Source: Bugula neritina (Eukaryota; Animalia; Bryozoa). From it: a DNA stretch of 64,000 nucleotides. Position numbers and translations under genes: made by a program. Below are positions 12,201 to 64,000 of this stretch, in pieces. Below the pieces are notes generated by a model that was given only the letters and a program-made list of their open reading frames with translations, was not told where the DNA came from and ran no database searches. Numbering within the stretch: the first letter of the stretch is position 1; every line of letters starts with the position of its first letter. The DNA lies in NCBI GenBank assembly GCA_964035545.1, contig OZ037766.1:14870722-14934721 (forward strand), read 5' to 3'.

Positions 12201-15200
12201 AACAAGTTGTTGATAAAGATACAGGAGTGCATATTCTGGTAAGATGGATTCCAACTTGCTAGCGTACCAAATCAGGCAACAAAAGTGCCTCATATTTCTT
12301 CCATACCTATTCTATTAACTTCAGGGCAATGTGTTTCATCACTGTTTAAGGGGATTTGTGCTGTCGAATTTTAACTATGACTTAACTTTTAATGCTATCC
12401 ATCGAATCTCTTTGTTCCTCAAGATAATCTTGATGGCAATGTTCTAAGAATAAATCAGCCAAGAATTGTAGCTAGGGTTTTAGAAATGATATATAAAAAA
12501 GATGTAAATATATAATATTTTACCCACATTAAATTTGTACATGTACATCCTGTGCAGTCCATGTGCACCTGCAAAAAGTAAGATACTATAAGATAAGATT
12601 GTGTTGTCCTCTAGTTCAAACCCGTCTCATCAACATCAGAAAGACCTACTCTGGATTTTGGAGCCAGTATTGCCTCTCTCCAGAGAGATGCAGCAGAACC
12701 TGGAGTCGGAGATGTTGATTCCAAGCTTATGCAACTGGAGAAGGCTGGTAAAAAACTAAAGCCATACCCTGAGGTAAGTCTTCTATTGTTTGATTTGGTG
12801 CTTTTCCTTTTTGCGAAAGTTGTATTAGCCATTGTGGAGACTGCCATAATTTTTTGTTAATTGAATATCAATATTCTATAGTATTTAATACCATGTCCGA
12901 CAATTGTGCTATCTATTTGTGCCATTAATTGCAGTTTATAGTCCTTTAAGCTGGGCGGTTCTAATGAATGTGAAAGAACTGCAGTTTTAGTACTGCAAAA
13001 ACTTCAAATATCCGGCATTTTAAACACTCAACTTTCACCATAAATTAGAATCAACTTTAATCTTCATTTGTTAGCACTAAGATTCTTTTGTAATTGTTTC
13101 CTTAATATTTCAGCCAACTGTAGACAAGGCTAGAAGTGTAGAGCTGGCAACGAGCCAAACATTGGTGAGTAAATTTAACAGCTAACAGACGTCACGCAAT
13201 TATATCTACACACTTTTGTGGGTATTTGTACCTATAAATACAACATCAATCTAGTGACTTTGAATTCCGGTAAAGTCCTTCTGTGTATACTAAAAGCACT
13301 AACTCCGGATGATCATTCAGTTTACTCACTACTCTTACTGCTCAATCAATTGAAATATTCCCTTTTATTCCCTAAACACATTTTGTCTAATGAGAAGTAT
13401 TTTTGAGCAATTTCTTTATATGTATTTTGTGAAACATCTTGTGCAATACTACCTACACCATGTCTAGTGTTTTTTTAAAAGCAATAATTTATTTATTGCA
13501 GATTCATATGTGCAAACATATTTCAGTGCAATCGAATGTTGAAATCAAAGTTTGAAATGCAGCCAAATCTTATGAATGCATTTCTTCACTTTTGCTCCTT
13601 TTGATAGTTTATGATAATTGATTTCAACTAGGCTAAAACTTTTGTGATTATTTGCAACTTTACCATTTCTTAGCTTATTTATACATGTTTTGGGTTCTTT
13701 GCAGTTTGGCAATTTCTACAGTGGCCATATTAGAAGTTCTGTGCTGTGCAATATACCGTACGCCAGACTCCCGTGGGAATCTTCTAATACTCGCCACCCA
13801 TGGGCATTGTGTTAATGGCAGGTTGACACAACTGCCCTAATTATCAGTATTTTACAGTACCTGCGGCTAAAATCGTAGGACTTGGTTGACCTTTATACCA
13901 TTTTCCATGCTTTTCATTAGAAACGTGTGTTTTAGGGCAGAGCAGGTCAGCCTGAAAGTGAAGCGGAGTTGCTAAGTGTATTAAAAAGTTCTCCAAGCAA
14001 TGGCAGCATTTGGTCTAAACTAATTATGGTAACATCCAGACACAAAGGTGTGGAAGCGGGGAGAGCAAGAGCTGAGCAAGCTCTGGAAACAGTTCCTTAC
14101 AGGTGTGCACGCAGCTTATGCTGATGAGTAATGTATATGGTGTTAAACTCTAAAGTCTAATCTCATGTATATCAGAGAATAGCAGGACTACTGCAGTGTC
14201 AAGCCACCACGGTTAGTGTGACAGTGACTGGCTATGCATGGCATTGCGTTATTCCTGCTCATCTGCACCATAAATCATCACTCTTCACCCATGCAAAGAT
14301 TTATTTGTCTCCGAAGGCTATTACAGTAATTATCCCTTCCTACAGTTTTTCTTTACACACACACCACACACACCACACACACACACCACACACACACACT
14401 ACACACCACACACACACCACACACACAACACACACCACACACACACACCACACACACACACACACACACACCACACACACACACACACACCACACACACT
14501 ACAGTAGTCAATTCTAAAGTATTTCAGCTAGTACATTGTTGGCATCCGAAATAATGTAGGGTTTAACCAGTTTCCAAGTAAGCAGCTTGCACCTCAGTGA
14601 CCCAACCATTCTTACAATAGCCAGTCAATTAGTCTAAAGACACTCTGGCTCTAGCTGTTTCAGGGTAGCTCTGCCATTACTAATCTTGTGGGTGGGCAGC
14701 CTGGGTAGTACTGGTGGAGCATACCTCGTATATTCAAATCTGGTAAAAAGGAAATTGTGTTGAGGTTGTATTAAAAGCAGATTTGTGCCCAGTAGTAAAT
14801 GGGTTTCACTGAGATGCTTAGTCTATGATCAAATCCTCAACTAAAATTGTAGCAATGCCTTCCAGTAGGCAGTAGCTATAAAAAGCATATTTCTTATTAT
14901 ATTTATCTGGGTTGTGCCACTTCTTTCAAGATGATGCAGAAATAGTCCCTTGTGATGTTGAAATGTCTAGTTAATTTAATTAACACAGTTTCTTATGGTG
15001 TATTTTATTAATACAAATTGGTACTGACTAGTAAATGCTTTCACTTCCTAATAATAGCCTATAGTTCATGGTTGTAAATATCCGCTATTTCAAGCATTTT
15101 TCAGATGTGCGGAATAATAGATTTGTGTTTATATGTGTAATATTGTATATCATAGCAGAATTTTCTGCCTAATGATCTGAACATCGAGGGCTAAACTTTT

Positions 15201-28072: not shown

Positions 28073-28474
<402 letters not shown>

Positions 28475-38060: not shown

Positions 38061-38284
38061 TTTGTGGTGAAAAAAAAGTTTCAAAGAACTTTTTAAAAAG
38101 ATTGAGTAGTCAACTTTCTTAAAAAAGTATGTGCGCTAGGCTTTGGGTTTGAAATAAGTTCTACTGAGTCATAATACTATTTTGTAAAACCTAAACTTTT
38201 GTCATAAATTAAGTTATAAGAATATATGTATAATTAAAATAGAAGACAACTCGTTTTGAAAAAAATCTGTTTGCCTTTGACGAG

Positions 38285-38695
38285 TGTAGTGAATTTTGCC
38301 AGTTCACTATTATTATTATGTGGGTTAACTTAGACAAAGCCACTGCACAAGGTTGTTTACGAGAAGATACACTTTATTATTTACACAAATATAAGAAGGT
38401 TATTTACTGCTAGCATGAATAGAAAACTGTTACATAATTACTGAGCTTTAACACACAACTACTCTAAATGAAGTCCCAAGCTGCTCTGCCGGCTAGCTAC
38501 TCAGCGCACTGCAACTACGAGTAGCTAGCTCCACCTGCTATTAATTAGAGTGACTGTCTTGATTGGTGGTCACTAATGGTGCCACTACTGTCCATGGTTA
38601 CATCCCGACAGTGTCGAACTCGCAAGATAACAAACAATATAGAGAGTAACCTTTTCGATTAATATAATAAAATTGCATTACTAAAATCCATCACA
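38285..38695 (-). repeat. 3' LTR (411 bp)
   Basis: Starts TGTGATGG and ends CACTACA on the minus strand. Contains CCAAT, CAGGTG and AATAAA (38373-38378). Three substitutions versus the 5' LTR in shared sequence. Confidence 0.96.
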
Positions 38696-38707
38696 CTCTC
38701 CTCGCCT
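38696..38707 (-). other. Polypurine tract
   Basis: AGGCGAGGAGAG immediately upstream of the 3' LTR on the minus strand. Confidence 0.85.
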
Positions 38708-38936: not shown

Positions 38937-40119
38937 TCACTTCTTCGCCAGCCGTTTCTCTAGTCGGGTCTGCAACTTAGCCAGCTCGGTGGTCGCTCGC
39001 TTCTGTTCCATACGCCGTTGCACTTTCCTAATGTCGACTAGTAGGGATTGGTCAGGGTCGCTGTCATCTCGGGGTGTGCTGCTAGCACCCCTCTTCTTCT
39101 TATGGGTGTGTCGGGGCACATAGGAGATTGTCGTCGTTGGGGGTTGTGAGTCCTTCGTTACAGCGCGTCCAGCCCGGGTTATTACGACGCGTAGGGGTTG
39201 GGTGGTTACGTCTGGAGGGTAGGTAGTCGTTGTCTCGGAGGGTTGGGGGTCTGCATCAGAGTCACTCTCTACTGTAGGTCGGGTAGCGGGGAAGTGGTCC
39301 AGGAGAGTCTGTCGTCGGTCTGGGTCGGTCACGTGAGGTAATATTAGGTCCCTGAACTCCGTGTAGGAGTCCGCGTCGACTTCGTACAAGTGTCCAACGT
39401 AACAGTCCCTAGTCCGTTGGTGTCGCAGTATCGTGTCCCTGCAGAAGTGGTGGACTCCGCAGGGACAGAAAGTCACAGTAAAGTGTTGGGGAACATGTAT
39501 TCTCAGTCTCCTAGTAGTCGATAGTATTCTTCTACATTCAGTGCATTGTCTATTGTCGTCTGTCCCTACTAGTGCTTCTATCAGTGTTCGAGTCCGTCGA
39601 GTCGTCCAGTTAGTGCGTTCCAGTAATGCCCGTGGTAGTGCTAGAGTATTGTCCTTGGCTACAGTCAAGTCATCAGTCAAGTCATTTGTATCAATTTGCA
39701 TCGCAGTGTTTGTCGGGGAGTCCGTAAATGTTGCTAAGTGTATGTCGGACAGCATGTCTACCCCTGCTTCTGACATGCTGTCCCAGTTAGTCGTAGGTGT
39801 GTCAAGTAATGCCTGTATCTCGTCGGATACAGGCTCAGTCTCACCTGCAATAGAGTATTAAAATTTAATTACACTCTATGCGTGGGACTCCCGTTCCAAA
39901 CGATATTAATAATCGAGTCTCACAGTCTGTCACTCACTGATCGTGTAATCAGCTGAGTTGACCGTCCCACTCTAACTATCAAATATCATTTGCTGTCAGG
40001 AGTTTCAACTTTATCATTATGACAAAGTGAGACTGCTGTCGCTACCAGAATAAATTCTAACAATTTATTATAGAATTTCTAGTAGACTTACCCCCCAAAA
40101 CAGTTACTGCATTAGACAT
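38937..40119 (-). CDS. Retrotransposon accessory protein (ORF3): acidic N-terminus, tandem C2H2/C2HC zinc fingers, basic patch, C-terminal coiled coil; probably two exons, about 311 aa
   Basis: The 279-aa ORF 39776-38937 stays open upstream to acceptor TACTCTATTGCAG|G (exon starts 39844). Upstream mini-exon 40119-40092 (ATG TCT AAT GCA GTA ACT GTT TTG GGG G|GTAAGT) matches in phase 1. Fingers CTEC-x12-HVPQH and CPC-x12-H-x5-C at about 39545-39402. Confidence 0.8.
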
Positions 40120-40370
40120 ACTTATGCTGCTGCTTTCTTAGGGCTCGTAGATAGCCAAATTGTTTATTGCAAAAGACGTGCTGCCTGTTTGCTAGCTGTA
40201 ATTGAAAAGAGCGCTCACAGCTAGAGTGCTTATGTAACACCCTATACGCTGTGATTTGGCTACGCTCTGCTGACCCCCGGCTGACCCCCGGCTGACCTAT
40301 TCAATCCGCCACTGGGTCGCCTGCTATCAATTACCTCGCTCCCCCAGACTTCTTTGTGAATGTCGCCATG

Positions 40371-43300
40371 CTACAGAATACTGTGCATGTCGACCAAGTC
40401 ACACAAGAAGTCTTTTAAATAAGATGGTGGCGCCCTGGTACGTTGGCTACGGTCCAACGGTACCGGGGAGTTTGCTGCGACTGGCGACTCTTCCACCACG
40501 GGTGGTGTCGCCAGTACGGGGGGGTCCACCAGTACGGGTGGCCCTCCCCCAGCTGCCTCTCCCTCAGTATTCTGAGGAATTTCCATCTCATCCGGAACGA
40601 TGGGCCTGTCGACCGGCTCCACAGGTGGTGGGGCCGGCTCCGACAGGTCTTCAGGTGTGTCGACCTCCTCTTCCTGGGGTGGAGGAGGCTGGGGCTGGTC
40701 GGCCGACACATCAGCCGCCCCGTCCTGGTCTGGCAGGATCTCCTCAATCTCTCTATACGCCATGGGTCGCCCCCTCATAGGAGGGCGCCTAGCTGGCTCT
40801 AAGAGAGGAGGTGCTTGACCTGCCGCCTCAGGACTTGCCCAGTGAGGTTTTAGCCGTGCCTCGTTCTGGATCGACACTTGTCCAGACCGTTCCACTTTGT
40901 ATGTATGATTTGGCATTACCTCAATTACGCAGTAGGGACCTACGAACTTCGGCTGCAACTTGGCTGCCTGTCCGCGCCTGCGGCGATGACTGGTCATCCA
41001 GACCCAGTCCCCCACCTTGTATAAAGGTGGGTCGTCAGAGTCACCACTCCTGACCTGCCACTGCTGCTCACGTAGCACCTCGTGAGCCGTCCCCATGCGT
41101 TTGACGAGCTTGTCCACGTAGTCGTGGACATTGCTCTCGGGAGTCGGAACATGATAGGTTACATGCTCAGGAACCCTTGTTTCTCTCCCCAGCATGAGAA
41201 AATTAGGGGTCTCCAGTGTACTGGAGTGAGGGGTACTACGGTACGCTCGCATGATCTGCGGCAACACCAAGTCCCACTCTTCCTGGCTCCTACCGATAAG
41301 CAGGCTTCTCAGAGAGTCCCCTAGCATTCGGTTGTTCCGCTCCACGACCCCGTTCCCTTGCGGGTGATACGGGGTCGTCCGACTCTGGTTTACCTCCCAC
41401 ACTCTACAGAGATCGCTCATAAGTTGCGACTGAAACTGGGCGCCCTGGTCAGAGTGTATCTGCTCCGGCAAGCCGAAATAGCAGAACACCTGTTGATCCA
41501 GAGCTCTGGCCACCGAGGGGGCCGACGCATCTGGAATAGCCAGTGCATCAGCCCACCGCGTGAAATGGTCAGTTAATACCAGTATCCAGTTATTACCTCT
41601 CGCTGTAGTGGGCATGGGGCCTACCAGATCGACAGCAACCACCTGCCACGGACGACCGGCATGGAGGCGACGCCTCCCTGCGGTCTCAGTGGGGCGGCCA
41701 TGCTTGCTAGCTTGGTACACCTCGCACTTCCGCACCCGGAGTCGGACATCCCGGGTCATACCGGGCCAAAACCACTGGAGTTGAAGACACCTGATCACCC
41801 GGCTAGCTCCTGCGTGAGCTTGCTTATGGGTGTCCCAGATCAACTCCCGCCTCAGAGCTGACGGGCAGACTACCCTCTCTCGTTCACTGCGATTGGTGCC
41901 GACTGCCAACGTGATCGTTAGCAGCCCATCGCTGTTGAACCTTAGGGAGTCCCAGCGGTCACAGAAGTACTTAAACTCAGTACTCTTCACTCGCTGTTCG
42001 GCCTCACTCGGCCGCCGTCCCTCCTTCTTGGCCCGGACTAGGTCAGCTACCACCCCTGGTAGCGTGGACTGGAGCCGACATAGCTCCCTGACGTTCCGAA
42101 GCAACGTAGGGTTTGCGTGAAGGTTGTTAACAGCTTTGTTGGGCGATTCGGACAGGAGTTGCCCTTCTTCCCAGCTGTACACACCCGCTTTCCCCAACTG
42201 CGCTTCGACGTCCGAGCGAGGGGGTCCACCGTCCCTGCGCTCAATATTCTGGCATTGCTTACACCCATCTGCCTGGCGGCGGCTGAGTCCATCTGCATTA
42301 CCGTGTTTCTTACCAGGTCGATGCTCGATCCGATAAGAAAACTCTGCCAGGATCTCCAGCCAGCGCGCCACTTGGCTTGATGGTTCTGCCCGTCGACACA
42401 GCCATATCAGGGACGCATGATCCGTCCGAAGCCGGAATGTGCGCCCATATAGATATGGTCTAAAGTGTTTGACCGCCTTGACTACTGCCAAGAGTTCCCT
42501 CCTGGTTGTACAGTAGTTCTTCTCAGGCGCCGACAGGGCCTTGCTATAGTAAGCCACCACCACCTCGCGACCATCTTGGACCTGCGATAGCACAGCCCCC
42601 ACATTATGGTTACTGGCATCAGTATCCAAAATGTACTCCTTCGCAGGGTCAGGATACGCCAAGATGGGTGCTTCCACCAGGCGATCCTTCAGGTGGTCAA
42701 ATGCCTTCTGCTCAGCCTGCGTCCACTGCCATCGCACCCCCTTCGCGGTCAGCCGATTTAACGGCTGTGCAATTCCGGCGAAGTCTGGTATGTACTGACG
42801 ATAGTACCCTACCAGCCCCAGGAATGCCCGCAATTCAGAGAGGTCGACAGGAACGGCCCAGTCCCTCACGGCCCGTACCTTCTCGGGGTCGGTAGCGACC
42901 CCGTCTCGACCAACTACATGGCCATGGTACTTGACCTCGCGTTGCAGTAATGCACACTTCGAGGGTTTTAGCTTCAGGCTAGCAGCTCGGAGTCTGTCGA
43001 ACACCTCCCTGAGTCGACTGACATGGGTGTCGAAGTCGGGGGAGATGACGATGACACCATCGAGATAAATGAGCAAGGTCTTCCAGTGCAGTCCACTCAG
43101 GACCTGCTCCATGAGTCGCTGGAAGGTGGCTGGTGCGGACGTAAGTCCGAATGGCAACACCTTCCATTTCCAGAGCCCATCCCGCGTTATAAACGCGGCC
43201 TTGTCCTGTGCTTCAGGACTCAGGGGCACCTGCCAATACCCGCTTAGCAAGTCCAACGTGCTGAAGAACTTGCTACCAGCTAAGGCATCGAGCGACTCAT

Positions 43301-44852
43301 CGATCCTCGGGAGAGGGTAAGCGTCCTGGATGGTCACGCTGTTCAGCCTGCGATAGTCAACGCAAAACCTTCAGCTACCATCCTTTTTCCGAACCAAGAC
43401 GACTGGAGAACTCCAGGCCCCATGGCCTGGCTCAATCAGGTCCCGGTTCAGAAGGTCTTGCACCTGACGGCTCACTTCTCTCTCCTTCTCAGGACCTAAC
43501 CGGCGGGTCGGCTGCCGAATTGGCGCCGTCCCCGCCGCCAGGGGTATCTCATGACAGACAGTCTTAGTCAGACCCATGTCATGGTCGCCGCAACTAAACA
43601 CGTCCTTGTACTCAGAGAGTAGCCGCGCCATCACCAGGCGTTCTCGCTTGCTCTCACAGCCATCACAGGCATCCTCGTACAACTCTGCTACGTGTTCAGG
43701 CACCGGCCCCCTGCCGTCTCTAGTGGGTACTTCCCGGGCGTCGTCCGCTGTTTCCAGCGCGGGCCCTACATCCTCCGCTTGCACGGAGTGGAACTTCCCT
43801 ACTAGAGACCCAGCCGGTAATTCTACCGGCTCCGTGAAAGGGTTTACGCACTGGACCAGGAACTCCCCCCGCTCATCCAGTCTATTCAGACTGTTAGCGA
43901 GCTGGACGCCCCCCAGTGCACCTTCCACCACTCCGAGTTCGGAGATTTCCCTACAGTTCACTCTGCAGCGAACTGTAGCCCGGGAGCGCCCAGGTACAGT
44001 ACAGCGCTGTACCACCTGCACTCCCCCCACCAAGGGTCGGCCAAATCGGTCGACACAGGCTAGCTCACGCCCCGCCATCACTACTGCCGACTTGCTAAAG
44101 TCTATGTAGCACCTGTGTCGTTTCAGAAATGGCATGCCCAAGATGGCATCCTCCTTGAGTTGACTGACGATGAAGGTCTCACTGATCATTTGATCACGGA
44201 CTCTACCAGTCAACTGGATTACCCCATAGAAAGGAATACACGACCCGTCCGCCAACGTGCCGTGTTCCCCCTCATATGGTTCAAGGCTAGCCCTGTCCTT
44301 GGCACTGAGAGTGTCGAAGAGACGTCGACTCAGTAGATTTTTGGTACACCCAGTATCCAACAGGAATGTGGCAGCTTTACCAGCGATTTTGCCGGGGAGG
44401 AAATAGCTGCTTCCATATGGCTGGGCGCTCACTGAGCGGTTTGTCTCTTGAGGCGACACCTCATGTGCATGGAATTGGGGATGCACCTGTGCTTTTCGGT
44501 TGCGAGGGGGTCGTCGACGATGCATGGGCGGGCAGGGTACGTCTCGGTCTCGCTCACGCACGGGCGGCCGAGTGAATTCTCGGACTGATGCTCGTGTGGG
44601 CAACCGAGGAAAATCCCTGTTGTGCTCCCATTCGTCGTTCACTCCCTCATCAAGCAAACCTTCAAAGCGGTTTTTGAGTGCCCAAGCCGGAGGTATTGGT
44701 GGGCCTTGCGGCCGACTCACTCTCCTTGGGGCTTGCCACTCTGGCGAAGGCGGCCTCCTCACCCGGTGGGGTGGGGGCCGTAGCCTTTGCCTTGGGGGGT
44801 TAGACTGGGGCCCACGGTAGGCGGAAGTTACCGTGGGCCGTCGCTGTTTAAC
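40371..44852 (-). pseudogene. pol: pol polyprotein (protease, RT, RNase H, integrase), inactivated
   Basis: Protease LLDTG; RT (SPVVLVRKKDGS*RFCVDYR, PFGLTSAPATFQR); RNase H (LDTDAS, ELLAVV, TDH); integrase (H..H..C, VDLVGP, SDQG, GVVER) and GPY motif. In-frame TGA at 43373-43371 (Trp position) splits it into the 501-aa and 988-aa ORFs. YLDD reads YLDG (43067-43056). The integrase CxxC reads CEVY (41717-41715). Confidence 0.93.
44809..44852 (-). promoter_or_regulatory. Programmed -1 ribosomal frameshift signal (gag-pol)
   Basis: G TTA AAC (44852-44846) in the gag frame, 6-nt spacer, then perfect 11-bp stem GGCCCACGGTA / TACCGTGGGCC with a 9-nt loop. pol is in the -1 frame relative to gag. 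Confidence 0.8.
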
Positions 44853-45697
44853 CGTCTCCCACTGCCGCGGGGGCAACTTCGTAGGAAGTGCCCACCACTA
44901 CCACAGCCCCAGCATACGGGGCCGCGCCTGTCGTCGACAGCTACCGACGACCTCTTGGGTCTCTCGGCTGTCGCTTGCTGGCGCAGTTGCCTGATCTCGG
45001 CTAGCAGTTCTCGAATCAAGCTCGTGGTTAAGCTAGATTCGTCTGCTGCTGCCGCTGCGACCTGTACAGCTGTCTTCGTTGGCGGCGTCGACACGTCGTC
45101 TGCCCCGACTTGCTGCACTGTCGCACCAGGTCGACTTGCACTGTCGGCTTGGAAATAGGCATTCCCAAGCCTTAGAGCTCTCTCCATAGTCTCAACTTCG
45201 GCTACCAGCAGATGCTGTTTCAGACCGAGGTTGTTAATAGACTGGAGGAATGCATCCAGTGCTAGGCTCTGTCGACTGTCGGCAGGCAAGTCGCTGTAAG
45301 CAACCTGTGCCAGTTGTTCGACTGCGGTAGCGTGCTCTCGCAGATTGGTCTTAGGATTTCTCCTAAGACTCTGCAGTTGCACGCGAGCATCTCGAGCGGT
45401 TAATCCAAACCTAGCTCGTAGTGCTTCAAATATGTCACCGACATTCTGGCTTATCCCATAGGGTTTAGCCGGCCCTGTCAGACACAACCGCAGCTGGATC
45501 AGAGTAACCCTGTTCGGCCATCCGCAGATGTCCGCCACATCACTGAACTCAGTGATGAATTGCTCCACATCTTCTTCCCCTGAGAAGATGGGAGCCCGCA
45601 AGTGGTACCTGTCCATAGGCAGCGCTGGGCCGCCTATGTGATCCTCCTCTATTGCTGCTGGCTCCTGTCGGGGCGCGTCGACAACTTCGTCGGCCAT
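44828..45697 (-). CDS. gag: Gag protein with CCHC zinc knuckle (289 aa)
   Basis: APIFSGEEDVEQFITEF capsid-like start; CWGCGSGGHFLRSC knuckle; first ORF after the PBS. Confidence 0.92.
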   Translation of the reverse strand: MADEVVDAPRQEPAAIEEDHIGGPALPMDRYHLRAPIFSGEEDVEQFITEFSDVADICGWPNRVTLIQLRLCLTGPAKPYGISQNVGDIFEALRARFGLTARDARVQLQSLRRNPKTNLREHATAVEQLAQVAYSDLPADSRQSLALDAFLQSINNLGLKQHLLVAEVETMERALRLGNAYFQADSASRPGATVQQVGADDVSTPPTKTAVQVAAAAADESSLTTSLIRELLAEIRQLRQQATAERPKRSSVAVDDRRGPVCWGCGSGGHFLRSCPRGSGRRLNSDGPR

Positions 45698-45732: not shown

Positions 45733-45751
45733 AATCCCACCGCTGCCACCA
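45733..45751 (-). other. Primer-binding site complementary to the tRNA-Leu 3' end
   Basis: TGGTGGCAGCGGTGGGATT one nt downstream of the 5' LTR, complementary to ...AATCCCACCGCTGCCA-CCA of eukaryotic tRNA-Leu. Confidence 0.88.
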
Positions 45752-45752
45752 G

Positions 45753-46025
45753 TGTAGTGAATTTTGCCAGTTCACTATTATTATTATGTGGGTTAACTTA
45801 GACAAAGCCACTGCACAAGGTTGTTTACGAGAAGATACACTTTATTATTTAATAATAGCTCCACCTGCTATCAATTAGAGTGACTGTCTTGATTGGTGGT
45901 CACTAATGGTGCCACTACTGTCCATGGTTACATCCCGACAGTGTCGAACTCGCAAGATAACAAACAATATAGAGAGTAACCTTTTCGCTTAATATAACAA
46001 AATTGCATTACTAAAATCCATCACA
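45753..46025 (-). repeat. 5' LTR (273 bp, internally deleted)
   Basis: Matches the 3' LTR except three substitutions and a 142-bp segment replaced by 4 nt. Confidence 0.96.
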
Positions 46026-46452
46026 CGAGTCAAAATTGAGTTTCAACAGCTTCTTGTGCCGAGAAAAAAATTAAGCACTCCACCTGCATAAAAGTGTAAT
46101 ATTTCATGTCAATAATCATCTAGTGCAAATGGCCTCTGTAAACTTTACATATTAAAAGAACTATAAAACTGGGGTTTCACAACTCTATAGCCAGAAGGTT
46201 CAATAGTCATCGAAGTAAAAGAATTATGACTAATATCTTAATTATTGCATGATTTTTGCTTTTGATTAAATAAGCAGATACATATATTATATCCATAAAG
46301 AAACTTTGCTTTAATAAAGAAATGGTTATATACTTTTTATATTCATTTTTATAAATTTTGAAAAGTAATTGCAAAATGTTTAAAAAAATAGCGTCGATGA
46401 AATGTTTAATTTTAGAAACACTATATATAGCAACAAGCAATAAAACACAACA

Positions 46453-48201
46453 TTATCGTAACATGCCTCTTTTCAGCATGAAACTTTGGTACTCGTTCAA
46501 GCGTTTCACAAACCAATGCACTGGCATTGTCATATCTATACAAGTTTGATTTTTAAGACCTTTTTCACTGAGCACATATCCATACACAAAGTTGCCATTC
46601 TCTTTCAAACTGCCATCTTTCCCAGACTCATTAGGCATTGTGCTTTTTATACAAAACTCCATCCATCTTTGCTTAACAGCCTGAAAACTAGTCTTTTCTT
46701 TAGTAAAATATGTTCTATTTGCTTCTATGGTTGCCTCTAATTTGCTTTTAAAATGGTAATATAACTTTGCATCAGCTAATGACTTTTCATAAAGGAAAGC
46801 TTTACTTTCTTCATCATCAGGCATATCTACACCTTCCATAGCTATTTCGTCATACGAACCATTGGTAATTTTTCTGAAGTTGATAGCAAATGAGAGAATG
46901 TCATCATTACTCCAGCCCAGCATGTCTCTCAGTATGATCAGAGACTCATCAAAGTATTCTACTACCATCACCAGATGAAACCTTTTGTCCAACATTTCTA
47001 TATATTCATCAATAGCTTCTTGAGATGTAGAATGTTTATTTACAGGAAATCCCAAGTCAAACATCATTGGATTGTATGCAGTAACATTACATATAACTGT
47101 CTGATGTGGGAAACCAATAATAATCTCTTTCAGTGTTTTCTTAGAACAGCCTTTCCAGTTTTGATAGATATAGAAAGACCGCATCATTGAAAATGGTTCT
47201 CTGACAATAGTTAAATAGAATGCATCTTTCTTCATTACTTTTCCAATCTTTTCTGAGAATACTGAGTGAAAACACAATATATCAGCTTTTCCCGATTTTA
47301 TTGGTCGCATGTGCTTGCTGGGATCAAATGGGTGTGGCCAGCCGGCCAAATTGGATAAATATTTTGGTAGCACAAAAGTAAGGTTATTTCTTATCCCGTA
47401 TCTCATAAGAATATTTTGTACAGTGGAACTGGCACATTTATGTGTTTTTATGAATGCTATGTGCTTTAATGGAGTCTTTCTTCTTGCAAGTTTATAATAT
47501 GGTGTGATGAGCCTGTTTCCTTGAAGATAAAGATTTGAAAATACAAGAGGAGTTTTGTCATTTTCTTTAGTGTCTTCTTTCCATTTGCTGACAGATTTAA
47601 TTTCTAAGTTAGACTGCTTACCATCATGTGGAGGATATTTATATTTGTTGTCAATAATTATACCTAAAATAGACATTACCAGTATTATGCATATTTTAAA
47701 AAATTACAAGATCATCACACTAACTATAGCAAACTAATGTAATATTACTTTGGTAGAAAGTTTACTAGAAACATATTTATTTCAAAATGACGCTTATAAA
47801 ACATTAATAAGATATTAAAACTAGTATTTTTTCATCTGAACAATAAATGTTTAAATCTATTTTGAACTGATTTGAACATTATGTTTCTAATGAACTTTTC
47901 ATCGTCATTCATCAAACAATTTGCTCAAAGATATATTTTCAAAATACTTCATAAATCACAATAAAAGGATTATAACTCCTATAAATTGTATTTGAAGACT
48001 TGCAGATTGGATAACAAGCAGAAACCACTAATTCTCCATGCAACTCGTTGGAATAACAAACTTACCTACTTTCCCTTTAGTTTCATACCCGTTAATAGTA
48101 CTATTCATATAATATAACATAAAAATCAGAGCAGCTGCTGTTGTTAACAAAATGGCTGCTCGTTTCTTTAGATTACCAAACCAGGCTAGATAAAATGGCA
48201 T
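46453..48201 (-). CDS. Galactose-3-O-sulfotransferase-like Golgi type II membrane protein, copy 1 (448 aa)
   Basis: Exons 48201-48066 (MPFYLAW...TM) and 47663-46453, phase 1. 5'-PSB motif FIKTHKCASSTVQNIL, 3'-PB motif TIVREP, plus NPMMFDLG and FHLVMVVEYFDESLI typical of the Gal3ST family. Confidence 0.92.
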
Positions 48202-49180: not shown

Positions 49181-49825
49181 TGTAATGGATTTCAGATTAT
49201 GTTATTATCGAAAGGATAACTCTATGTGGCTTACTCTCTATACGCTTGGCATAATGGCTATAAGTACTGGAGATCAATTATCATAATAGCTGACAATTGG
49301 AATGCGTACAATCTGCTGGACAATTATTGCTAGCTACTAATGCACACAGTTAAACAAGGCAAGACTAGTTAAATGGAATCAACAACTGTAGGAGGCGTAG
49401 ATGGTTTGCACTGGCAGTTAGCTGCTTAGTAGCAGATGCTAGTGTTATGCTTATGGGATGGAGTTAATTAGTAGCGACAGAGACGACTCGGCGTAGACGG
49501 TTACCCGACAATATCTGACAGTCGACAGTGGCACCACTAACGCTAGCCAATCAGGACAGTCACACTAATTGATAGCAGGTGGAGCTAGCTACTCGTAGTT
49601 GCAGTGCGCTGAGTAGCTAGCCGGCAGAGCAGCTTGGGACTTCATTTAGAGTAGTTGTGTGTTAAAGCTCAGTAATTATGTAACAGTTTCTATTCATGCT
49701 AGCAGTAAATAACCTCTTGTATTTGTGTAACTAATAAAGTGTATCTTATCGTAAACAACCTTGTGCAGTGGCTTTGTCTAAGTTAACCCACACATAATAA
49801 TAGTGAACTGGAAAAATTCACTACA
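49181..49825 (+). mobile_element. Solo LTR (645 bp) related to the 38-46 kb Gypsy element
   Basis: TGTAATGG...CACTACA flanked by TSD ATAT (49177-49180, 49826-49829). The 3' ~290 bp nearly match the reverse complement of the element's LTR. The empty site GAGTG-ATAT-ACATAATT is visible in the paralogous spacer near 53020. Confidence 0.93.
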
Positions 49826-50773: not shown

Positions 50774-52556
50774 TCATAGCATGCCTTTTTGCAGCCCAAA
50801 ACTCTGGTACTTGTTTACGCGTTGCACAAACCAAGGCTCTGGTGTTGCCAGATCTATGCAAGTCTGATTTTTAAGACCTTTTTTACTGAGTTCATATCCA
50901 AATACAAAGTTGCCAAACCCTTTAAATCTCCTATCTCTCACATACTCATTAGGCGTTGTGCTTTTTATACAAAATTCCATCCATCTTTGCTTAACAGCCT
51001 GAAAATCTGACTTTTCTCTAATGAAATATGTTTTATTTGCCTCTATGGTTGCTTCCAGTTTGCGTTTAAAATGGTAATATAACCTTGCATCTGCAATTGA
51101 CTTTTTATAAAGGAAAGTTTTACTTTCTTCATAATCAGACATATCTACACCCTTCATAGCTACTTCTTCAAATGAACCATTGGTAATTTTTCTGAAGTTA
51201 ACAGCAAATGAGAGAATGTCATCATTACTCCAGCCTAGCATGTCTCTCAGTATGATCAGAGACTCATCAAAGTATTCTACTATCATCACCAGATGAAACC
51301 TTCTGTCCAACATTTCTATATACTCATCAATAGCTTTTAAAGATGTCGAATGCTTTTTTATAGGAAATCCCAAGTCAAACATCATTGGATTGTATGCATT
51401 AACATTACATATGACTGTCTGGTGTGGAAAACCAGCAATAATTTCTTTCAATGTCTTCCTATAACAGCGGTTCCAGTTTTCATAACTATAAAAAGACCGC
51501 ATCATTGAAAGTGGTTCTCTGACAATAGTTAAATAGAATGTATCTTTTTTCATTACTTTTGCAATCTTTTCTGAGAAGACTGAGTGAAAACACAGTATAT
51601 CAGCTTTTTCTTCTTTGATTGGTCGCATGTGCTTGCTGGGGTCAAAAGGATGTGGCCAGCCGGCCATATTATATGTATCTTTTGGTAGCACAAAAGTAAG
51701 GTTATTTCTTATCCCGTATCTCATTAGAATGTTCTGTATGGTGGAACTGGCACATTTGTGTGTTTTTATAAATGCTACGTGTTTTAATGGAGTTTTTCTT
51801 CTCGTGAAATTATAATATGGTGCGACAGGTATGTTTCTCTGAAGAGGAAGTTTGAAAATTACAGCAGAAGCTGTATCATTTTTTTTAGTTTCTTCATTCC
51901 ATTTGCCACCAGATTTGATTTCTAAGTTAGACTGCATACCACCATGTAGAAGATAGTTTACTTTGCAGTCAATAATTATACCTAAAATGTTTACAGCCTG
52001 ACATGATTATCACATTCTATAACAAATTTATGTAATTTTATGTTGTTTAAAAGTTTACTAGACAAATACTTATTTTGAAATTATGATTATAAAAAGTTGA
52101 CAGGATGTTAAAACTTGCATTTCACACTTTAAATCATAATTTATTCTTCCTATTACGTAAATATTATGGAGTGTTTAACAACTTTAACCACCATTGGATA
52201 TTTGAATCTATTTAAAACCAAAATTGAACACTATGCTTCTAATAAACCTTTTTTATCATTCATCAAACAATTTGCTCGAAGTAATACTTTAAAAACCCTT
52301 AATAAATCATAATAAAAATGATTATAATAACCCCTAGATTTAGTTGAAAACTTGGTGATTTAATAACAAACACAAACTATCGATTCTCCATTCAACTTGT
52401 TTAGATGACAAACTTACCTTTTTCTCCTTCAGTTCTGTTGCTATAAACAGCATTTTTTATATAATATAGCATAAAAATCAGAGCAGCCATTGTTATTAAA
52501 TAGTAAATGGCTGTTATTTTCCATAGCTTGCTTAACCAGGCTACATGAAATGGCAT
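50774..52556 (-). CDS. Galactose-3-O-sulfotransferase-like protein, copy 2 (448 aa)
   Basis: Exons 52556-52418 and 51981-50774, phase 1; same motifs as copy 1. Confidence 0.92.
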
Positions 52557-53684: not shown

Positions 53685-55527
53685 TCATAGCAAGCCTCTT
53701 TGCACCCCAAAACTTTGGTACTCGTTCACTCGTTTCACAAACCAAGGCTCTGGTGTTGCCAAATCTATGCAAGTTTGATTTTGAAGACCGTTTCTACTGA
53801 GCACATATCCATACACAAAGTTGCCAAACCCTTTAAATCTCCTATCTCTCACAGACTTATTAGGTATTGTGCTTTTTATACAAAATTCCATCCATCTCTG
53901 CTTAACAGCCTGAAAACTTAATTTTTCTTTAGTAAAATATGTTCTATTTGCTTCTATGGTTGCCTCCAGTTTGCTTTTAAAATGGTAATATAACTTTGCA
54001 TCAGCTAATGACTTTTCATAAAGGAACGCTTTACTTTCTTTATTATCAGGCATATCTACACCTTCCATAGCTATTTCGTCATACGAACTATTGTTTTTTT
54101 TTCTGAAGTTAACAGCAAATGAGAGAATGTCATCATTACTCCAGCCCAGCATGTCTCTCAGTATGATCAGAGACTCATCAAAGTATTCTACTACCATCAC
54201 CAGATTAAACCTTTTGTCCAACATTTCTATATATTCATCAATAGCTTTTAAAAATGAAAAACGTCTATTTACAAGAAATCCCAAATCAGACATCATTGGA
54301 TTGTATGCATTAATGCCACATATAACTTTTCGGTACGGGAAACCAGATATAATCTCTTTCAGTGTTTTCTTAGAACAGCCTTTCCAGTTTTGATAGGTAT
54401 AAAAAGACCGCATCATCGAAAGGGGTTCTCTGACAATAGTTAAGTAGAATGTATCTTTTTTCATTACTTTTCCAATCTTTTCTGAGAAGACTGAATGAAA
54501 ACACAATATATCAGCTTTTTCTTCTTTGATTGGTCGCATGTGCTTGCTAGGATCAAATGGGTGTGGCCAGCCGGCCATATTAGATAAATCTTTTGGTAGC
54601 ACAAAAGTGAGGTTATTTCTTATCCCGTACCTCATCAGAATGTTCTGTATAGTGGAGCTGGCACATTTGTGTGTTTTTATGAATGCTATGTGCTTTAATG
54701 GAGTCTTTCTTCTTGTGAAATTATAATATGATGTGGTAAGCTCATCTCTCTGGGGGTCAAGCCAAAAATAGCGGTCTGAAAAATAATATAAACTTGTACA
54801 ACTTTTATTTTTGACACGATAATCACATTTTATAACAAACTACTGCACATCAATGTTATATTGATAAAAAGTTTACTAGAAATATATTTATTTTAAAATA
54901 ATGCTTACAATAAAAGGGTTGATGAGGTATTAAAAATAATATTTTACACTTAAAATTAAACACACTATAATAGTTTAAACTGACATCGAAAATTATACTT
55001 CCAATAAACTTTTTCTTTATCAAACTCATGCAAATTTATAATAGCCATCTCTGTGAGAAACCCTTGTTGGAAGGGGTTTTCATTAGAACAGGCTAAGGAC
55101 TTGTTCAAATGAGGCACAGGAACAATTATGACTGGATGCTCTTCCTAACATCGCCAATGGCCTTTGTCGGGGTTCGAACCCATGACTTTGTGTTCACTAA
55201 GCAAACACTCTAACCCCTAGACCGCCGGCTGCTCCCTGTTTTCTTTATCAAACAATATGCTTAAGGTAATACTTTAAAAATACTTGAGAAATTATAATAA
55301 AAGGATTAAAACCCCTAGACTGTACTGAAGACTTGCTGATTTGATAACAAACACAAATCACCAGTCCTGATGCAACATGTTTAGATGACAAACTTACCTT
55401 TAGTTCTGACTGTATTGAAATAAATTGTATTTTTCATATAATATAACATAAGAATCAGAGCAGCTACTGCTGTTGAAATGGCTGCTCTTTTATTTAGCTT
55501 ACCAAACCAGGCTAGATAAAATGGCAT
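53685..55527 (-). CDS. Galactose-3-O-sulfotransferase-like protein, copy 3 (about 406 aa, short stem)
   Basis: Exons 55527-55398 and 54775-53685 (acceptor TTTTTCAG|AC), phase 1; same motifs as copies 1 and 2. Confidence 0.9.
55026..55238 (-). mobile_element. tRNA-derived SINE with 15-bp TSD
   Basis: Minus-strand head with A-box-like CGGTCTAGGGG and B-box GGTTCGAACCC (55170-55181). TSD TTTTCTTTATCAAAC at 55011-55025 and 55239-55253. Absent from the paralogous introns of copies 1 and 2. Confidence 0.88.
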
Positions 55528-58470: not shown

Positions 58471-58791
<321 letters not shown>

Positions 58792-59903: not shown

Positions 59904-62075
59904 ATGTCAAACAGTATTAATAGACCAACATACTTATGCCATCTACAGATGGGCCCAGCTGCCCCACCGCTAGACCAAGGTAGCTCTGCGTTACTCTGGG
60001 CTCTGTGGCATGATGTTGATCCATCAGAATTATTCTTGGAGTCGAAGGAAACAGACAGAGCCACCACAAGCATGTCTTTGCAGTCATATGAGTCACCATA
60101 CAAATACACGCCTAGCTTTGCTTTCCCGAGTCGAAGGTCTCATTATGCTGAAGTAACGAGAGTCAGAGCCAAACAGAATGCTGCCAGAACTAAATACTGT
60201 TCGACAGCGCCATCTATACAACCAATAGTAGAAGAGGAAGAAATAGTGGTTAAAGCTAAACCTTCTATTTGTGAGTAAATATGTTACAAATGCTTAGTTT
60301 TCACATACATTTGCTTTAAAAAGTACATATTGTATAAGCCAAGTTAATACAAGTTGCATGATCATAAAATTATTACATGTCTACTGTAGGTTGAAAGTCA
60401 CTAAGTTTATTAAGCAAAGATCGAGCTATTAGCAATTTGGTTTTCTTACTGTTCCATTAAGTTGATATACCAGTTATTTTCTTTTCATAAAAATTACTTA
60501 AAATGTCCATGACCATTTTTGTGGTCCATAAAACATTAAGTAAGTATAAAAATAGTAAATGTTTAATTAATCCAAATAATTATTATAATAGTTGAAAACT
60601 CTGCATTTCGAGAGTTTGGAGTTGTCTCTACAATAGTTGTTGGGTATTCATAATAATAATAATAATATTATGCAGATTTCTGGAAAAAGTTGATCGCTAT
60701 TACTATCTCTGGCAGTGCTAGGATTGAAAGTACTGCGAATTATTTTTATTGCAATTACTTTCAATAAAATTTACAATTGGTTTAATAATGTAATTTGAAA
60801 CTTGACATAAAACCCTTGTTATAATAGCTTCATGCAACAAAAATATGTATAGTATTTTGGTGAAGCAAAATAATATTTTTTTATAATAAGCTGCTCATAA
60901 ATTTGTTTTGCTTTACATGTATATATTTTTAAAGATATTTTTTTATCAAAATGTAATACTGAATAAGTTGCTGTTTGAATTGTCTATCAAACCAGTAGAC
61001 ATCAACTATTAAATCAATTTGCTGTCAGTTATTTATGATGAAAAACTATTGTATTTTCATCATGACCTTCTCTCAACATTTATATGTCACTACATTGTGT
61101 TTGCCTGTTTAATCAGTAAACAATGTATTGATTTTTTGCTGATATTCAACCAATTAATTCGCTTGAGGTAATTATTTATCTATAAGTCTTTGAAAAAAAG
61201 AGACAGTAGCCAACGACATGACCTTTTACAGATGCCACTTTTTAACAGTTATAAGGCCGGTACAAAGTAAGCATAGCACAGTTTATCAAACAGAAAATTA
61301 AAATTTATAAGAACGTAATTGCTGTTATAATAGTTGCTAATATCTATCAATTGAATTGTCAATTTACATAATGTAGTACTAATGAACAAATATAATAATA
61401 ATAAATATATGTTCTTATAATCATTGATGCACGTAATTTATATTTGTAGTATGTGAGTTTTCTCCCCTTGAAAAACAGAACTCCAACACATTTCTAACAG
61501 AGATGCCAGAGTTTTACAGTATAGACCCGGAGATGGACAATGTTACAAAAATTTGCATGCCAGCATTTTTACCAACAATTCAGGCAAAAACTCAAACTAA
61601 AGATGCAACTGAAAAGCAGACTTCAATAGTTAAAAAATACTTACGGAAAATTGACCTCACCAGAAACACAACACCGACAACACCATATGCAACACAGTCA
61701 CTCCCACTAGAACTAAATGACAATAGGATGGATCACTTGTTTGAGCTAGAAAAATCTGTTCTTCTACATGAGCCAGTTAGAGCCAAGACACAAAAGTCTC
61801 AGAAACGTAAACCTACCAAGTATAGGAGTAGACATAAACCCACAGGAAACAAGAATAAGCTCATTGGGCGAGTTTATTTGGGAGTAGAAAGAGAGCCATC
61901 TTCCACTGGTTATTCACAGAAACCTAACAACTCCACCAGTTCCACTAGAATGTCATACCATTCGATGACAACCCCTCAGGAAGAGCTCATTACTAATTTC
62001 TCAAGAATTAGCATGAGACATGTGCAAGCTACGATAAATAACAAACGGTTAGCACTGTTACCTAGTATAACATGA
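59904..62075 (+). CDS. Uncharacterised, largely low-complexity protein (about 330 aa; two coding exons)
   Basis: Exon about 59904-60270 (donor T|GTGAGT, phase 1) joins acceptor TTTGTAG|TA at 61450, in frame with the 190-aa ORF ending at 62075. The start is uncertain (ATG at 59904 or 59949). No family recognised. Confidence 0.6.
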
Positions 62076-63484
62076 ATGCTAAAGTGACAACGGCTGCATA
62101 TAACTAAAGTTTATCAATAAGTTTCTTGTCAATTTGCTCAATGTTTAGAACTGTTTTATCTTTTATTTTATTGCAATTAAATACTCAAACATGTAGTTGC
62201 TATATCTTCTTATATCATAGAAGATATAATGATTTATAATGTATAAACAATTATAACTTTGCCAATGTTTGCCAGATTTTAAATAAATTGACTGTATAAC
62301 TAATGTATTCCAAACTAATTTCTTTTAACATTTTTTTCATTAGATTTATTTTGAAAAGTTAGATGCCTAACATAATTAGTGAAGTGGTCAGTTTGTGCCT
62401 TTTGCATGCAAGCATAATTGTTATTTTATACATACTTATTATTACGTCAGCATCATTATACTGTATAGTGATGCTATTTTTGTGGTTAGCAAGCAAATAT
62501 AGCCTATATTTGTTAAAACGGGCAGCTTACTTTGTAAATATTTTATAGTTGAACTAACTTTATAGTTTGTTCAAAAAGTGCAAACAATTAATAAAATGAA
62601 TTCATTTTTGATGGACACTTCATTTGCAGCACTATAAAGCTTTTGGTGTAACACAGCAATTAATCCAATGGTACTCAGCTGTAGGTAAATAACATCTAAA
62701 ATGAGGCTAAAACAATATATATGCTAATTTTCCTTTTGAATTCAATATAATCATGTTTAATATAATTGAAAACTTTTGGTGATCGGTGGCTAAAGAAAAC
62801 CTGATTGATCAAATGCCATTCTTAATGAATTAGACAAATACAAAAATCTGTACTGAATTGCTCACGTGTGTATAACAAAACATCAATCGCTGACAATGAA
62901 ATGAGAAAATGTTTAATGCCATTAGGCAACAATTCGTATTTTCTAATTCACAAACTCAATTGTTTCAGTACAAAGAGCTGCCGAGAAATTATATATTTTT
63001 ATGTAACAGTAATGATGTCTGACCTCCTTGCTCAATTTTGATTGGTTCTGACTAACATCAATAGACTGAATAAATGTAACTATAGCCTATACTTCCACTG
63101 CACCTTGCCACTTCATTGTGAAACTACCAGACTCATAATGGGAAAATTATCCAGCTAACCACAAGTTACAGTGAGTACGCATGCAGGATTAGTTTCAAAA
63201 TTACTCCTAATTTTTATTTTATAACAAAACTTATCACAAACCAGTTGATTCACCTGATATATTATAGTGCTACATGATTTTTTAAAAAAAAGGGTATATA
63301 TATTTTTGTTTGAAGAGTATCTAGTGCCTTACATTTACATGTTTTACAAGCAATGTTTTGGAATGACAAAACTAATCATGTAATTTGGATAACTTACTCT
63401 TATGAAGTTGCTTTGTGCAATGTACACAGAAGTTGAAGTAAGTTATATTATGTTATTTCAGACATAGGAATGTAAGTATCAGTC

Positions 63485-64000
63485 ATGTTTACGATAGCCA
63501 ACCAGACTGGCGTAACTCTGCCTCAGCTGTTTGCTCCTAAGGCTGAGCCTGCTGACACAGATGGCATTTCTCTTGCTGGATCCAAAACACAACAAGTACA
63601 AACTTTCAACAGCAACCGCAATGTTACATTACCTCACATATCTCAAAGGTCTAACAGGCCAGCACCAAAGATGGTTCACCAAGTGGCTGTAAACACCGAC
63701 CAGTCATCTATGTTAGAAGCTTTAGAGATCTACAAAAAGTCTCGTTTGACACATAGTCCTGATATAAAAGAAGTTCGATCTACAATATTCCAAACTGTTC
63801 CTTGCCCTACTCCAATCGAAGAGTGTCAAACAATCACACCTCCTCCAAATCCAATGCAAATAAATGTACAAAGGTACATTGGTCCGAAAAAGATTGTGCG
63901 AAAAAGCAGTGTAGAGAAAATTCTAAATGTTGTACAGCAGCCAACATTCAGCAAGCAACTTCCGGTCTCCACCACTCTTCAACGACGTCTGGAAAAGCTA
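63485..64000 (+). CDS. Uncharacterised protein, 3'-partial (at least 172 aa)
   Basis: ATG at 63485 shortly after acceptor TTATTTCAG. The frame is open to the window end (MFTIANQTGVTLPQLFAPK...LQRRLEKL). Candidate upstream non-coding exon with donor GTGAGT at 63171. Confidence 0.65.
   Translation, partial: MFTIANQTGVTLPQLFAPKAEPADTDGISLAGSKTQQVQTFNSNRNVTLPHISQRSNRPAPKMVHQVAVNTDQSSMLEALEIYKKSRLTHSPDIKEVRSTIFQTVPCPTPIEECQTITPPPNPMQINVQRYIGPKKIVRKSSVEKILNVVQQPTFSKQLPVSTTLQRRLEKL

Follow-up and report, generated by a model that had tools for sequence, protein, structure and literature searches.

A probably spliced double zinc-finger gene in the env position of a bryozoan Gypsy retrotransposon, a candidate regulator of its own element

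A Gypsy LTR retrotransposon of the bryozoan Bugula neritina carries a third gene (ORF3) downstream of pol, and we are nearly certain that this gene is real and serves the element. It lies in a 64,000-nucleotide stretch of contig OZ037766.1 that was analysed as a whole (the window). Its product is predicted to be a nuclear protein with two zinc fingers, an acidic N-terminal arm and a C-terminal helix. To the explanation that we place first, namely that the protein binds DNA as a dimer and activates the promoters of its own element, as Tas does in the foamy viruses, we give an even chance.

Results

A young, complete Gypsy element carries ORF3

The retrotransposon holding ORF3 is complete and runs on the minus strand from 46025 to 38285. 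By its structure and the order of its pol domains it is a Ty3/gypsy element (Metaviridae). Its LTRs end in TG..CA and are identical at 270 of 273 aligned bases. Apart from ORF3, its parts are as follows.

45753..46025, minus strand: 5′ LTR, 273 nt, TG..CA; about 138 nt of its middle are absent relative to the 3′ LTR
45734..45751, minus strand: primer-binding site (PBS), beginning TGG
44828..45697, minus strand: gag, 289 aa, with a CCHC knuckle at the C-terminus
40371..44897, minus strand: pol (PR-RT-RNaseH-IN), its frame overlapping the end of gag
40120..40370, minus strand: pol-ORF3 spacer, a candidate internal promoter
38696..38707, minus strand: polypurine tract (PPT)
38285..38695, minus strand: 3′ LTR, 411 nt, with AATAAA at 38378
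38281..38284 and 46026..46029: CGAG target-site duplication flanking the LTRs

The PBS may resemble the 3′ end of tRNA-Leu. In pol, Asp_protease_2, RVT_1, RT_RNaseH, Integrase_H2C2 and rve scored above the Pfam cut-off, in Gypsy order; the gag matches scored below it (zf-CCHC, E 0.054; Retrotrans_gag, E 0.33). The copy is young and complete, but broken, with one in-frame stop in pol at the start of RT (43371-43373). The integrase tail (40371-40800, minus strand) is Pro/Glu-rich, about 130 aa long, and ends in an R-x-R-x-P-P-x-Y-L motif.

The same window holds three tandem galactose-3-O-sulfotransferase (PF06990) ORFs on the minus strand (46456-47703, 50777-52006 and 53688-54839; E 1e-43 to 1e-48), and the repeat spacing suggests that the element lies within the 3′ flank of the duplicated sulfotransferase unit, in its first copy. 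An LTR at 49527-49825, in opposite orientation, is 94% identical to that of the element over 302 nt and then diverges; it is probably a solo LTR of a sister subfamily. Elsewhere in the window are (GT)n and (CA)n microsatellites of > 300 nt (28075-28430 and 58472-58790), a 132-nt tandem duplication (11968-12231), a 30-nt array (9387-9527) and exon-like open frames of 165-212 codons on the plus strand (61437-62072, 63476-64000 and 7638-8132); a Pfam scan covering two of these three gave no match.

ORF3 is likely expressed from a spliced mRNA

ORF3 lies on the sense (minus) strand of the element between the pol stop (40371) and the PPT, and the initial annotation was right in its position and strand and in calling it something other than env. 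Neither a signal peptide nor a C-terminal transmembrane anchor, as expected of env, was found; the hydropathy maximum over 19 residues is 0.74, so that ORF3 has no transmembrane segment, and exceeds 1.8 in just 4 of 205 relatives. The intact ORF of about 311 aa that had been described there holds as a product, not as a continuous frame: the open frame has 306 codons from stop to stop (39857-38937) and gives 279 aa from its first ATG, and 311 aa are obtained only if an ATG exon (40119-40092) is joined to the acceptor at 39844/39843.

40092..40119, minus strand: ORF3 exon 1, 28 nt, from the ATG, 9 codons and 1 nt (MSNAVTVLG)
39844..40091, minus strand: ORF3 intron, 248 nt, phase 1, GT-AG, with a GTAAGT donor at 40091 and a TTGCAG acceptor
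38937..39843, minus strand: ORF3 exon 2, through the stop; 311 aa together with exon 1

The intron contains a branch-like site (TTTTAAT), has stops in all three frames and a GC content of 37% (exon 2, 53%), and its donor is the sole perfect GTAAG(T) among 18 GTRAG words on the element's sense strand. Three related records (P0010, P0111 and P0116) carry the joined exon 1-exon 2 N-terminus in register, from which we strongly infer that exon 1 is spliced to exon 2. These records would be RNA contigs or intron-less DNA copies, and would in either case derive from splicing. Altogether, 14 close records span the start of exon 2; five begin inside the exon and nine extend beyond the acceptor, i.e. 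the three joined to exon 1 and six that read through a conserved AG-E/D signature.

Translation from the first in-frame ATG (39776, 279 aa) was discarded as the principal form of ORF3, because residues upstream of it show conservation and there are joined records. We doubt an env-style splice that would link the 5′ leader to an acceptor-like site at 40196, the G of which differs in 57% of the depth in run X1. No contig joint skipping the ORF3 intron was seen in run X1. In runs X2 and X3, summed contig depth at 85% likeness was far lower over ORF3 than over pol, with one empty bin just 3′ of ORF3, a pattern that fits faster divergence and copies without ORF3 alike.

Sibling copies of ORF3 are under purifying selection

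Contigs of run X1 placed on ORF3 differed at 95 places. The counts that follow are drawn from a subset of rows of this single run, which may itself be the source of the window, namely from the best-supported 40 of the 95 places, 35 of which fall in exon 2. These 35 differences comprised 30 synonymous and five non-synonymous changes and no stops, against 10.8 synonymous changes expected from the same kinds of change; 30 were reached in none of 200,000 simulations. The core domain alone gave 22 synonymous and two non-synonymous changes, and both indels among the 40 places were inside the intron. With a rough pN/pS of 0.07, ORF3 is shown, at the level of these sequences, to be under purifying selection among sibling copies; the neutral decay that the initial annotation had set against its own proposal did not appear.

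A predicted compact double-finger domain with two dissimilar arms

The residues of ORF3 are numbered here from 39842, and the protein can be divided as follows.

39657..39842, minus strand: acidic N-terminal arm, residues 1-62, predicted disordered; candidate activation domain
39273..39650, minus strand: conserved core, residues 65-190 (W-helix, C2H2 finger, linker, CxC-H-C/H finger, EVD strand, two helices, FP)
39090..39104, minus strand: basic patch HKKKR, a candidate nuclear localisation signal; a basic patch is also found in close relatives
38943..39056, minus strand: C-terminal helix, residues 263-300, a predicted coiled-coil dimerisation arm

Finger 1 (C100-x2-C103-x12-H116-x3-H120, at 39545-39483) is separated by a five-residue linker from finger 2 (C126-x-C128-x12-H141-x5-C147, at 39467-39402). 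All motifs that had been listed before are present, i.e. both fingers, the acidic N-terminus, LYEVDADSYTEFRDLILPHV, the T/P/S linker, HKKKR and the basic tail. What had been taken for a helical extension, LYEVDADSYTEFRDLILPHV, is rather a predicted strand plus two helices, and forms part of one compact domain that includes the W-helix before finger 1. An AlphaFold2 model of the core (mean pLDDT 92.2) shows, in order, a pair of helices, finger 1, a strand, finger 2, another strand and a further pair of helices, pointing strongly to a compact double-finger domain of about 125 aa; a model of the 301 exon-2 residues surrounds the core with low-confidence arms and a helix at 263-300. That the core binds zinc is likewise strongly predicted. 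In 129 aligned sequences, seven zinc-ligand positions and one valine are conserved at 90% or more.

Pfam assigned no family to the ORF3 protein of the window, and in the window protein together with 66 relatives it found no enzyme or chromatin-reader family, weak finger matches and one generic multi-finger protein aside. Foldseek gave no match at E ≤ 0.001 in PDB and BFVD, a PDB sequence search gave generic C2H2 proteins, and hits in the ESM Atlas were confined to unnamed or generic C2H2 clusters, whose shared-feature counts were low. Matches to Wiz, and P0147, were rejected as generic multi-finger likeness. In a fold comparison against 48,161 chains the best Z was 3.6; residues 43-93 of the model overlay two-finger DNA-binding proteins with an rmsd of about 2.5 Å (Z 3.3-3.6). 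The missing structural match for the whole domain does not prove a new fold.

In the recognition helix of finger 1, K or R stands at +2 in 65 of 73 sequences and R at +3 in 50 of 73, while +6 is mostly V, I or L; finger 2 carries an S-R-D helix. The spacing in finger 1 is 12 in 47 of these sequences and 11 in 21. The inter-finger linker has five residues in all 73 (the search pattern allowed 4-6), with no TGEKP-type seven-residue linker; this and the V/I/L at +6 argue that the pair is not a canonical DNA-reading tandem array. RNA or protein binding by the fingers is possible. Kruppel-type C2H2 arrays are similar in that finger 1 of ORF3 relatives weakly matches C2H2 profiles; ORF3 differs from them in its five-residue linker, CxC knuckle, fourth ligand (C or H) and the union of flanking helices and strand in one unit.

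The two arms were compared by simple scores of our own in 27 non-redundant members with both arms of at least 60 aa, P0230 (see below) being left out. The N-terminal arm was net-acidic in 23 of 27 members (C-terminal arm, 4 of 27) and held an acidic-hydrophobic window in 18 (versus 2). Conversely, a heptad window was found in the C-terminal arm of 17 members and the N-terminal arm of one, and a basic cluster in 10 and 4 respectively. Judged by these scores, the layout of an acidic N-terminal and a basic coiled-coil C-terminal arm is kept across the family even where its sequence is not. The window protein has 14 D/E and no K/R in residues 1-62; it fails the heptad test and the 5-of-7 basic test, and lacks five residues of the C-terminal helix that are kept in P0001 (a 96%-identical sibling) and most close relatives. 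A homodimer model of P0001, an antiparallel coiled coil of residues 241-281, scored 0.32 against 0.00 for the best control; its runs had at least 20% of contacts in common, at a pLDDT of at least 63. The score falls exactly on the mark, which 17 of 29 eukaryotic homodimers and none of 30 single chains attained; coiled coils may pass this mark by likeness to solved structures.

ORF3 belongs to a large family with Pol-linked members

We found 34 close relatives of the ORF3 protein at 43-96% identity, 71 relatives by profile search and 181 representatives in a wider search at E ≤ 0.001. The core profile matches 206 of 238 collected proteins, and 179 near-complete cores form 77 clusters at 50% identity. 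One of these proteins, P0230, is an 1810-aa open PR-RT-RH-IN protein that ends, in frame, in the double-finger domain; its RT-IN is 60% and its domain 37.5% identical to the counterparts in the window. A motif like the integrase tail, searched with a pattern of our own modelled on the pol end of the window, stands upstream of the domain in five of the 206 core-bearing proteins (P0230 and four more) and downstream in none, given equal lengths. In the other 201 no Pol link is visible; 43 of the 206 have at least 100 aa upstream of the domain.

On a quick tree of 124 rows, 55 of whose 121 branches are open, the Pol-linked five and the window fall in four separate parts. The Pol-linked label is unclustered there (232 of 500 shuffles were as low), so we claim neither a donor nor an order of events. 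The DNA context of ORF3 is that of the window copy, and synteny elsewhere rests on protein records; scans of viral, metagenome and genome collections with ORF3 or its alignments gave no confirmed locus, and an integrase query against collections gave a single 17-residue match (L001).

Of 30 clusters searched for an organism name, 4 gave one, in each case that of a bryozoan (Watersipora subatra for one, B. neritina for three). The four named relatives are annotated as host genes, so the host may encode part of the family; in two of them the domain is in tandem. Bryozoan proteins that bear the domain under a host annotation are P0212/P0072 in Watersipora, P0212 having two domain copies, and P0213, P0221 and P0241 in Bugula, of which P0221 and P0241 have consecutive locus tags; these are candidates for domesticated genes or annotated elements. 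KAF6037488.1 (Bugula) is sister to the clade of the window (SH-aLRT 97; 43% over 199 residues). The initial annotation had allowed for a single-copy host gene captured in one copy only; the size of the family and its Pol-linked members speak otherwise. As these protein records present it, ORF3 is not a one-off capture of a host gene and is a family-wide accessory gene of a Gypsy lineage.

Repeated motifs in the spacer upstream of ORF3

The spacer between pol and ORF3 has a 14-mer, TAATTGATAGCAGG, in common with the LTR; at least 13 nt in common with the 5′ LTR were found in 3 of 444 background segments. A 9-nt core of the 14-mer recurs at the ORF3 stop, and TGATAGCAG occurs three times on the sense strand. 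The 14-mer is a candidate site chosen post hoc; it contains a GATA consensus, and a host factor could be what binds there. The LTR at 49527-49825 also retains the 14-mer.

The spacer further contains three RGGTCA half-sites (40298, 40287 and 40276) spaced 11 nt apart in the region 40276-40303 (minus strand); the repeats resemble nuclear-receptor half-sites. An 11-nt deletion variant at 40269 was seen in X1, so the copy number of RGGTCA varies.

Discussion

Transcription activators usually combine an acidic arm, a nucleic-acid-binding domain, a basic patch and a dimer helix, and the architecture kept across the family favours this role for ORF3. A spliced ORF3 mRNA would be translated into a double-finger protein, predicted to be nuclear and dimeric, in which DNA would be read by two helices, the basic one in finger 1 and the S-R-D one in finger 2, the C-terminal helix would dimerise and the acidic arm would recruit host co-activators. 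More speculatively, the start of the mRNA might lie within the pol-ORF3 spacer, at an internal promoter, and its product might bind a motif common to spacer and LTR, setting up a positive-feedback loop as in foamy-virus Tas. The in-frame Pol fusions count against an activator, since they suggest a role with integrase. With a confidence somewhat short of even, we extend this reading to the family: an old and large animal Ty3/gypsy lineage may have independently evolved the strategy of complex retroviruses, with a sequence-specific double-finger activator, made from an internal promoter, driving an LTR feedback loop, and with an undescribed domain that would move between Pol-fused and free spliced forms and would have been domesticated several times as host genes in bryozoans.

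Tas, a protein of about 300 aa, is the working model for ORF3. Both genes lie 3′ of the replication genes. Tas is described as spliced, made from an internal promoter, composed of DNA-binding and activation domains and acting on both the LTR and the internal promoter (PMC13220597). It differs from ORF3 in belonging to Retroviridae with env, in the C-terminal place of its activation domain and in its internal promoter, which for ORF3 is a candidate only; a viral fold search with ORF3 gave no similarity to Tas/Bel1. The Oikopleura Tor elements show that an internal promoter can serve a 3′ gene in elements of the Gypsy-like kind (PMC4402516).

The closest Gypsy precedent for ORF3 is CERV, which Cer1, a Ty3/gypsy element of Caenorhabditis elegans, encodes in the env position as a spliced nuclear regulator (PMC10309623). 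Both are non-env genes after pol and before the 3′ LTR and both are spliced, ORF3 on the evidence of the joined records. CERV has 517 aa and exons in common with gag, combines a C4 loop with H, M and G-protein-like domains, and acts in RNA export (PMC10309623). ORF3, in contrast, starts from an ATG exon of its own, pairs a C2H2 finger with a CxC-H-C/H finger and bears an acidic arm; its model consists of a 125-aa finger domain and a single long helix, with no G-like domain. No CERV-named match was returned by searches with the ORF3 protein, and it is by description that the two are set apart.

The precedent lends weight to a Rev- or CERV-like post-transcriptional regulator that would bind unspliced genomic RNA and license its export or stability. 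The genomic RNA must keep a strong 248-nt intron, the very problem that CERV solves for Cer1; CERV also has a zipper, a basic patch and a Cys-rich loop (PMC10309623), and the non-canonical linker of five residues fits RNA binding. However, export has no need of the conserved acidic-hydrophobic arm, the finger pair comes structurally closest to DNA-bound C2H2 proteins, if only at Z 3.6 or less, and the three joined records may be intron-less DNA copies, in which case the intron is sometimes lost. We regard this reading as unlikely.

The Pol-linked relatives raise the alternative that the domain guides integrase to chosen DNA or chromatin, fused to Pol or in trans. Chromodomains occupy the same Pol-end position in chromoviruses. 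The in-frame domain at the Pol end of P0230 and the integrase-tail motif in frame upstream in four more proteins agree with such tethering, as does a related LTR 3.5 kb away in the same tandem gene array. In the window, however, ORF3 is separate from pol, with its own ATG exon and intron; the Pol-fused records are machine-called open frames that may hold an internal start, and in them the domain is still preceded by an acidic stretch and followed by a helical tail. In our view a targeting role is quite improbable.

A third alternative, to which we assign a small chance, is a factor that alters the chromatin state of the element rather than recruiting polymerase, either by anti-silencing, as do the VANC proteins, or as a self-limiting repressor. 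Kaiso, a methyl-CpG reader, heads the VIA rows of the fold comparison, though at Z 3.6 and tied with unrelated rows. VANC21 and VANC6 of the Arabidopsis VANDAL elements are, like ORF3, accessory proteins encoded by an element, and act on their own family through short motifs repeated in it (PMC6719617); TGATAGCAG is found three times here. They belong to a plant DNA transposon and their demethylation activity is demonstrated, and the three cases of transposable-element anti-silencing given in this 2019 review are all from plants (PMC6719617). Against a chromatin role for ORF3 stand the absence of enzyme or chromatin-reader Pfam families in the searches above and the acidic arm, which is better suited to activation. 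That ORF3 is a captured host transcription-factor gene riding as a passenger is hardly credible: its intron, the sister position of KAF6037488.1 and the four host-annotated bryozoan genes would agree with it, but sibling copies are under purifying selection and members linked to Pol occur across the tree, pointing to long residence and use within the element, and the scatter of host-annotated genes over several positions in the family fits domestication or annotated elements.

ORF3 had been proposed to be the element's own transcriptional activator or anti-silencing factor. What stands of this is a selected, family-wide, non-env accessory gene with an architecture favouring an activator; the accompanying notion that a Gypsy element can be 'complex' is not in itself novel, given CERV and the ORF3s of rotifers. 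Several kinds of non-env ORF3 are found in Juno and Vesta, LTR elements of bdelloid rotifers; like the present gene, they are family-specific third genes that occupy the env slot in an LTR element of an invertebrate (PMC5408684). Their products are enzymes (DEDDy exonuclease, GDSL esterase) or transmembrane proteins, and none is described in that source as a zinc-finger regulator (PMC5408684). In the literature covered we found no description of the ORF3 family, and PMC6238403 and PMC8556966 contained nothing on ORF3, a third or additional ORF, or zinc, while PMC13524379 and PMC3597677 proved to bear on other matters; Repbase, Dfam, GyDB, subscription journals and supplements lay outside this scope, and an entry there is possible. 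CERV is the sole characterised Gypsy regulator that we found, and it acts on RNA export.

The ORF3 domain itself is a predicted new zinc-binding family, with 77 clusters at 50% identity and no Pfam model. LTR retrotransposons are usually taken to depend on host transcription factors, and dedicated activators mark the complex retroviruses. If ORF3 is such a protein, a DNA-binding activator in Gypsy would represent an independent origin of the Tas/Tax strategy, and would offer a testable animal case of a transposon that controls its own expression. As some members are annotated as host genes, the domain family may also be a source of lineage-specific transcription factors.
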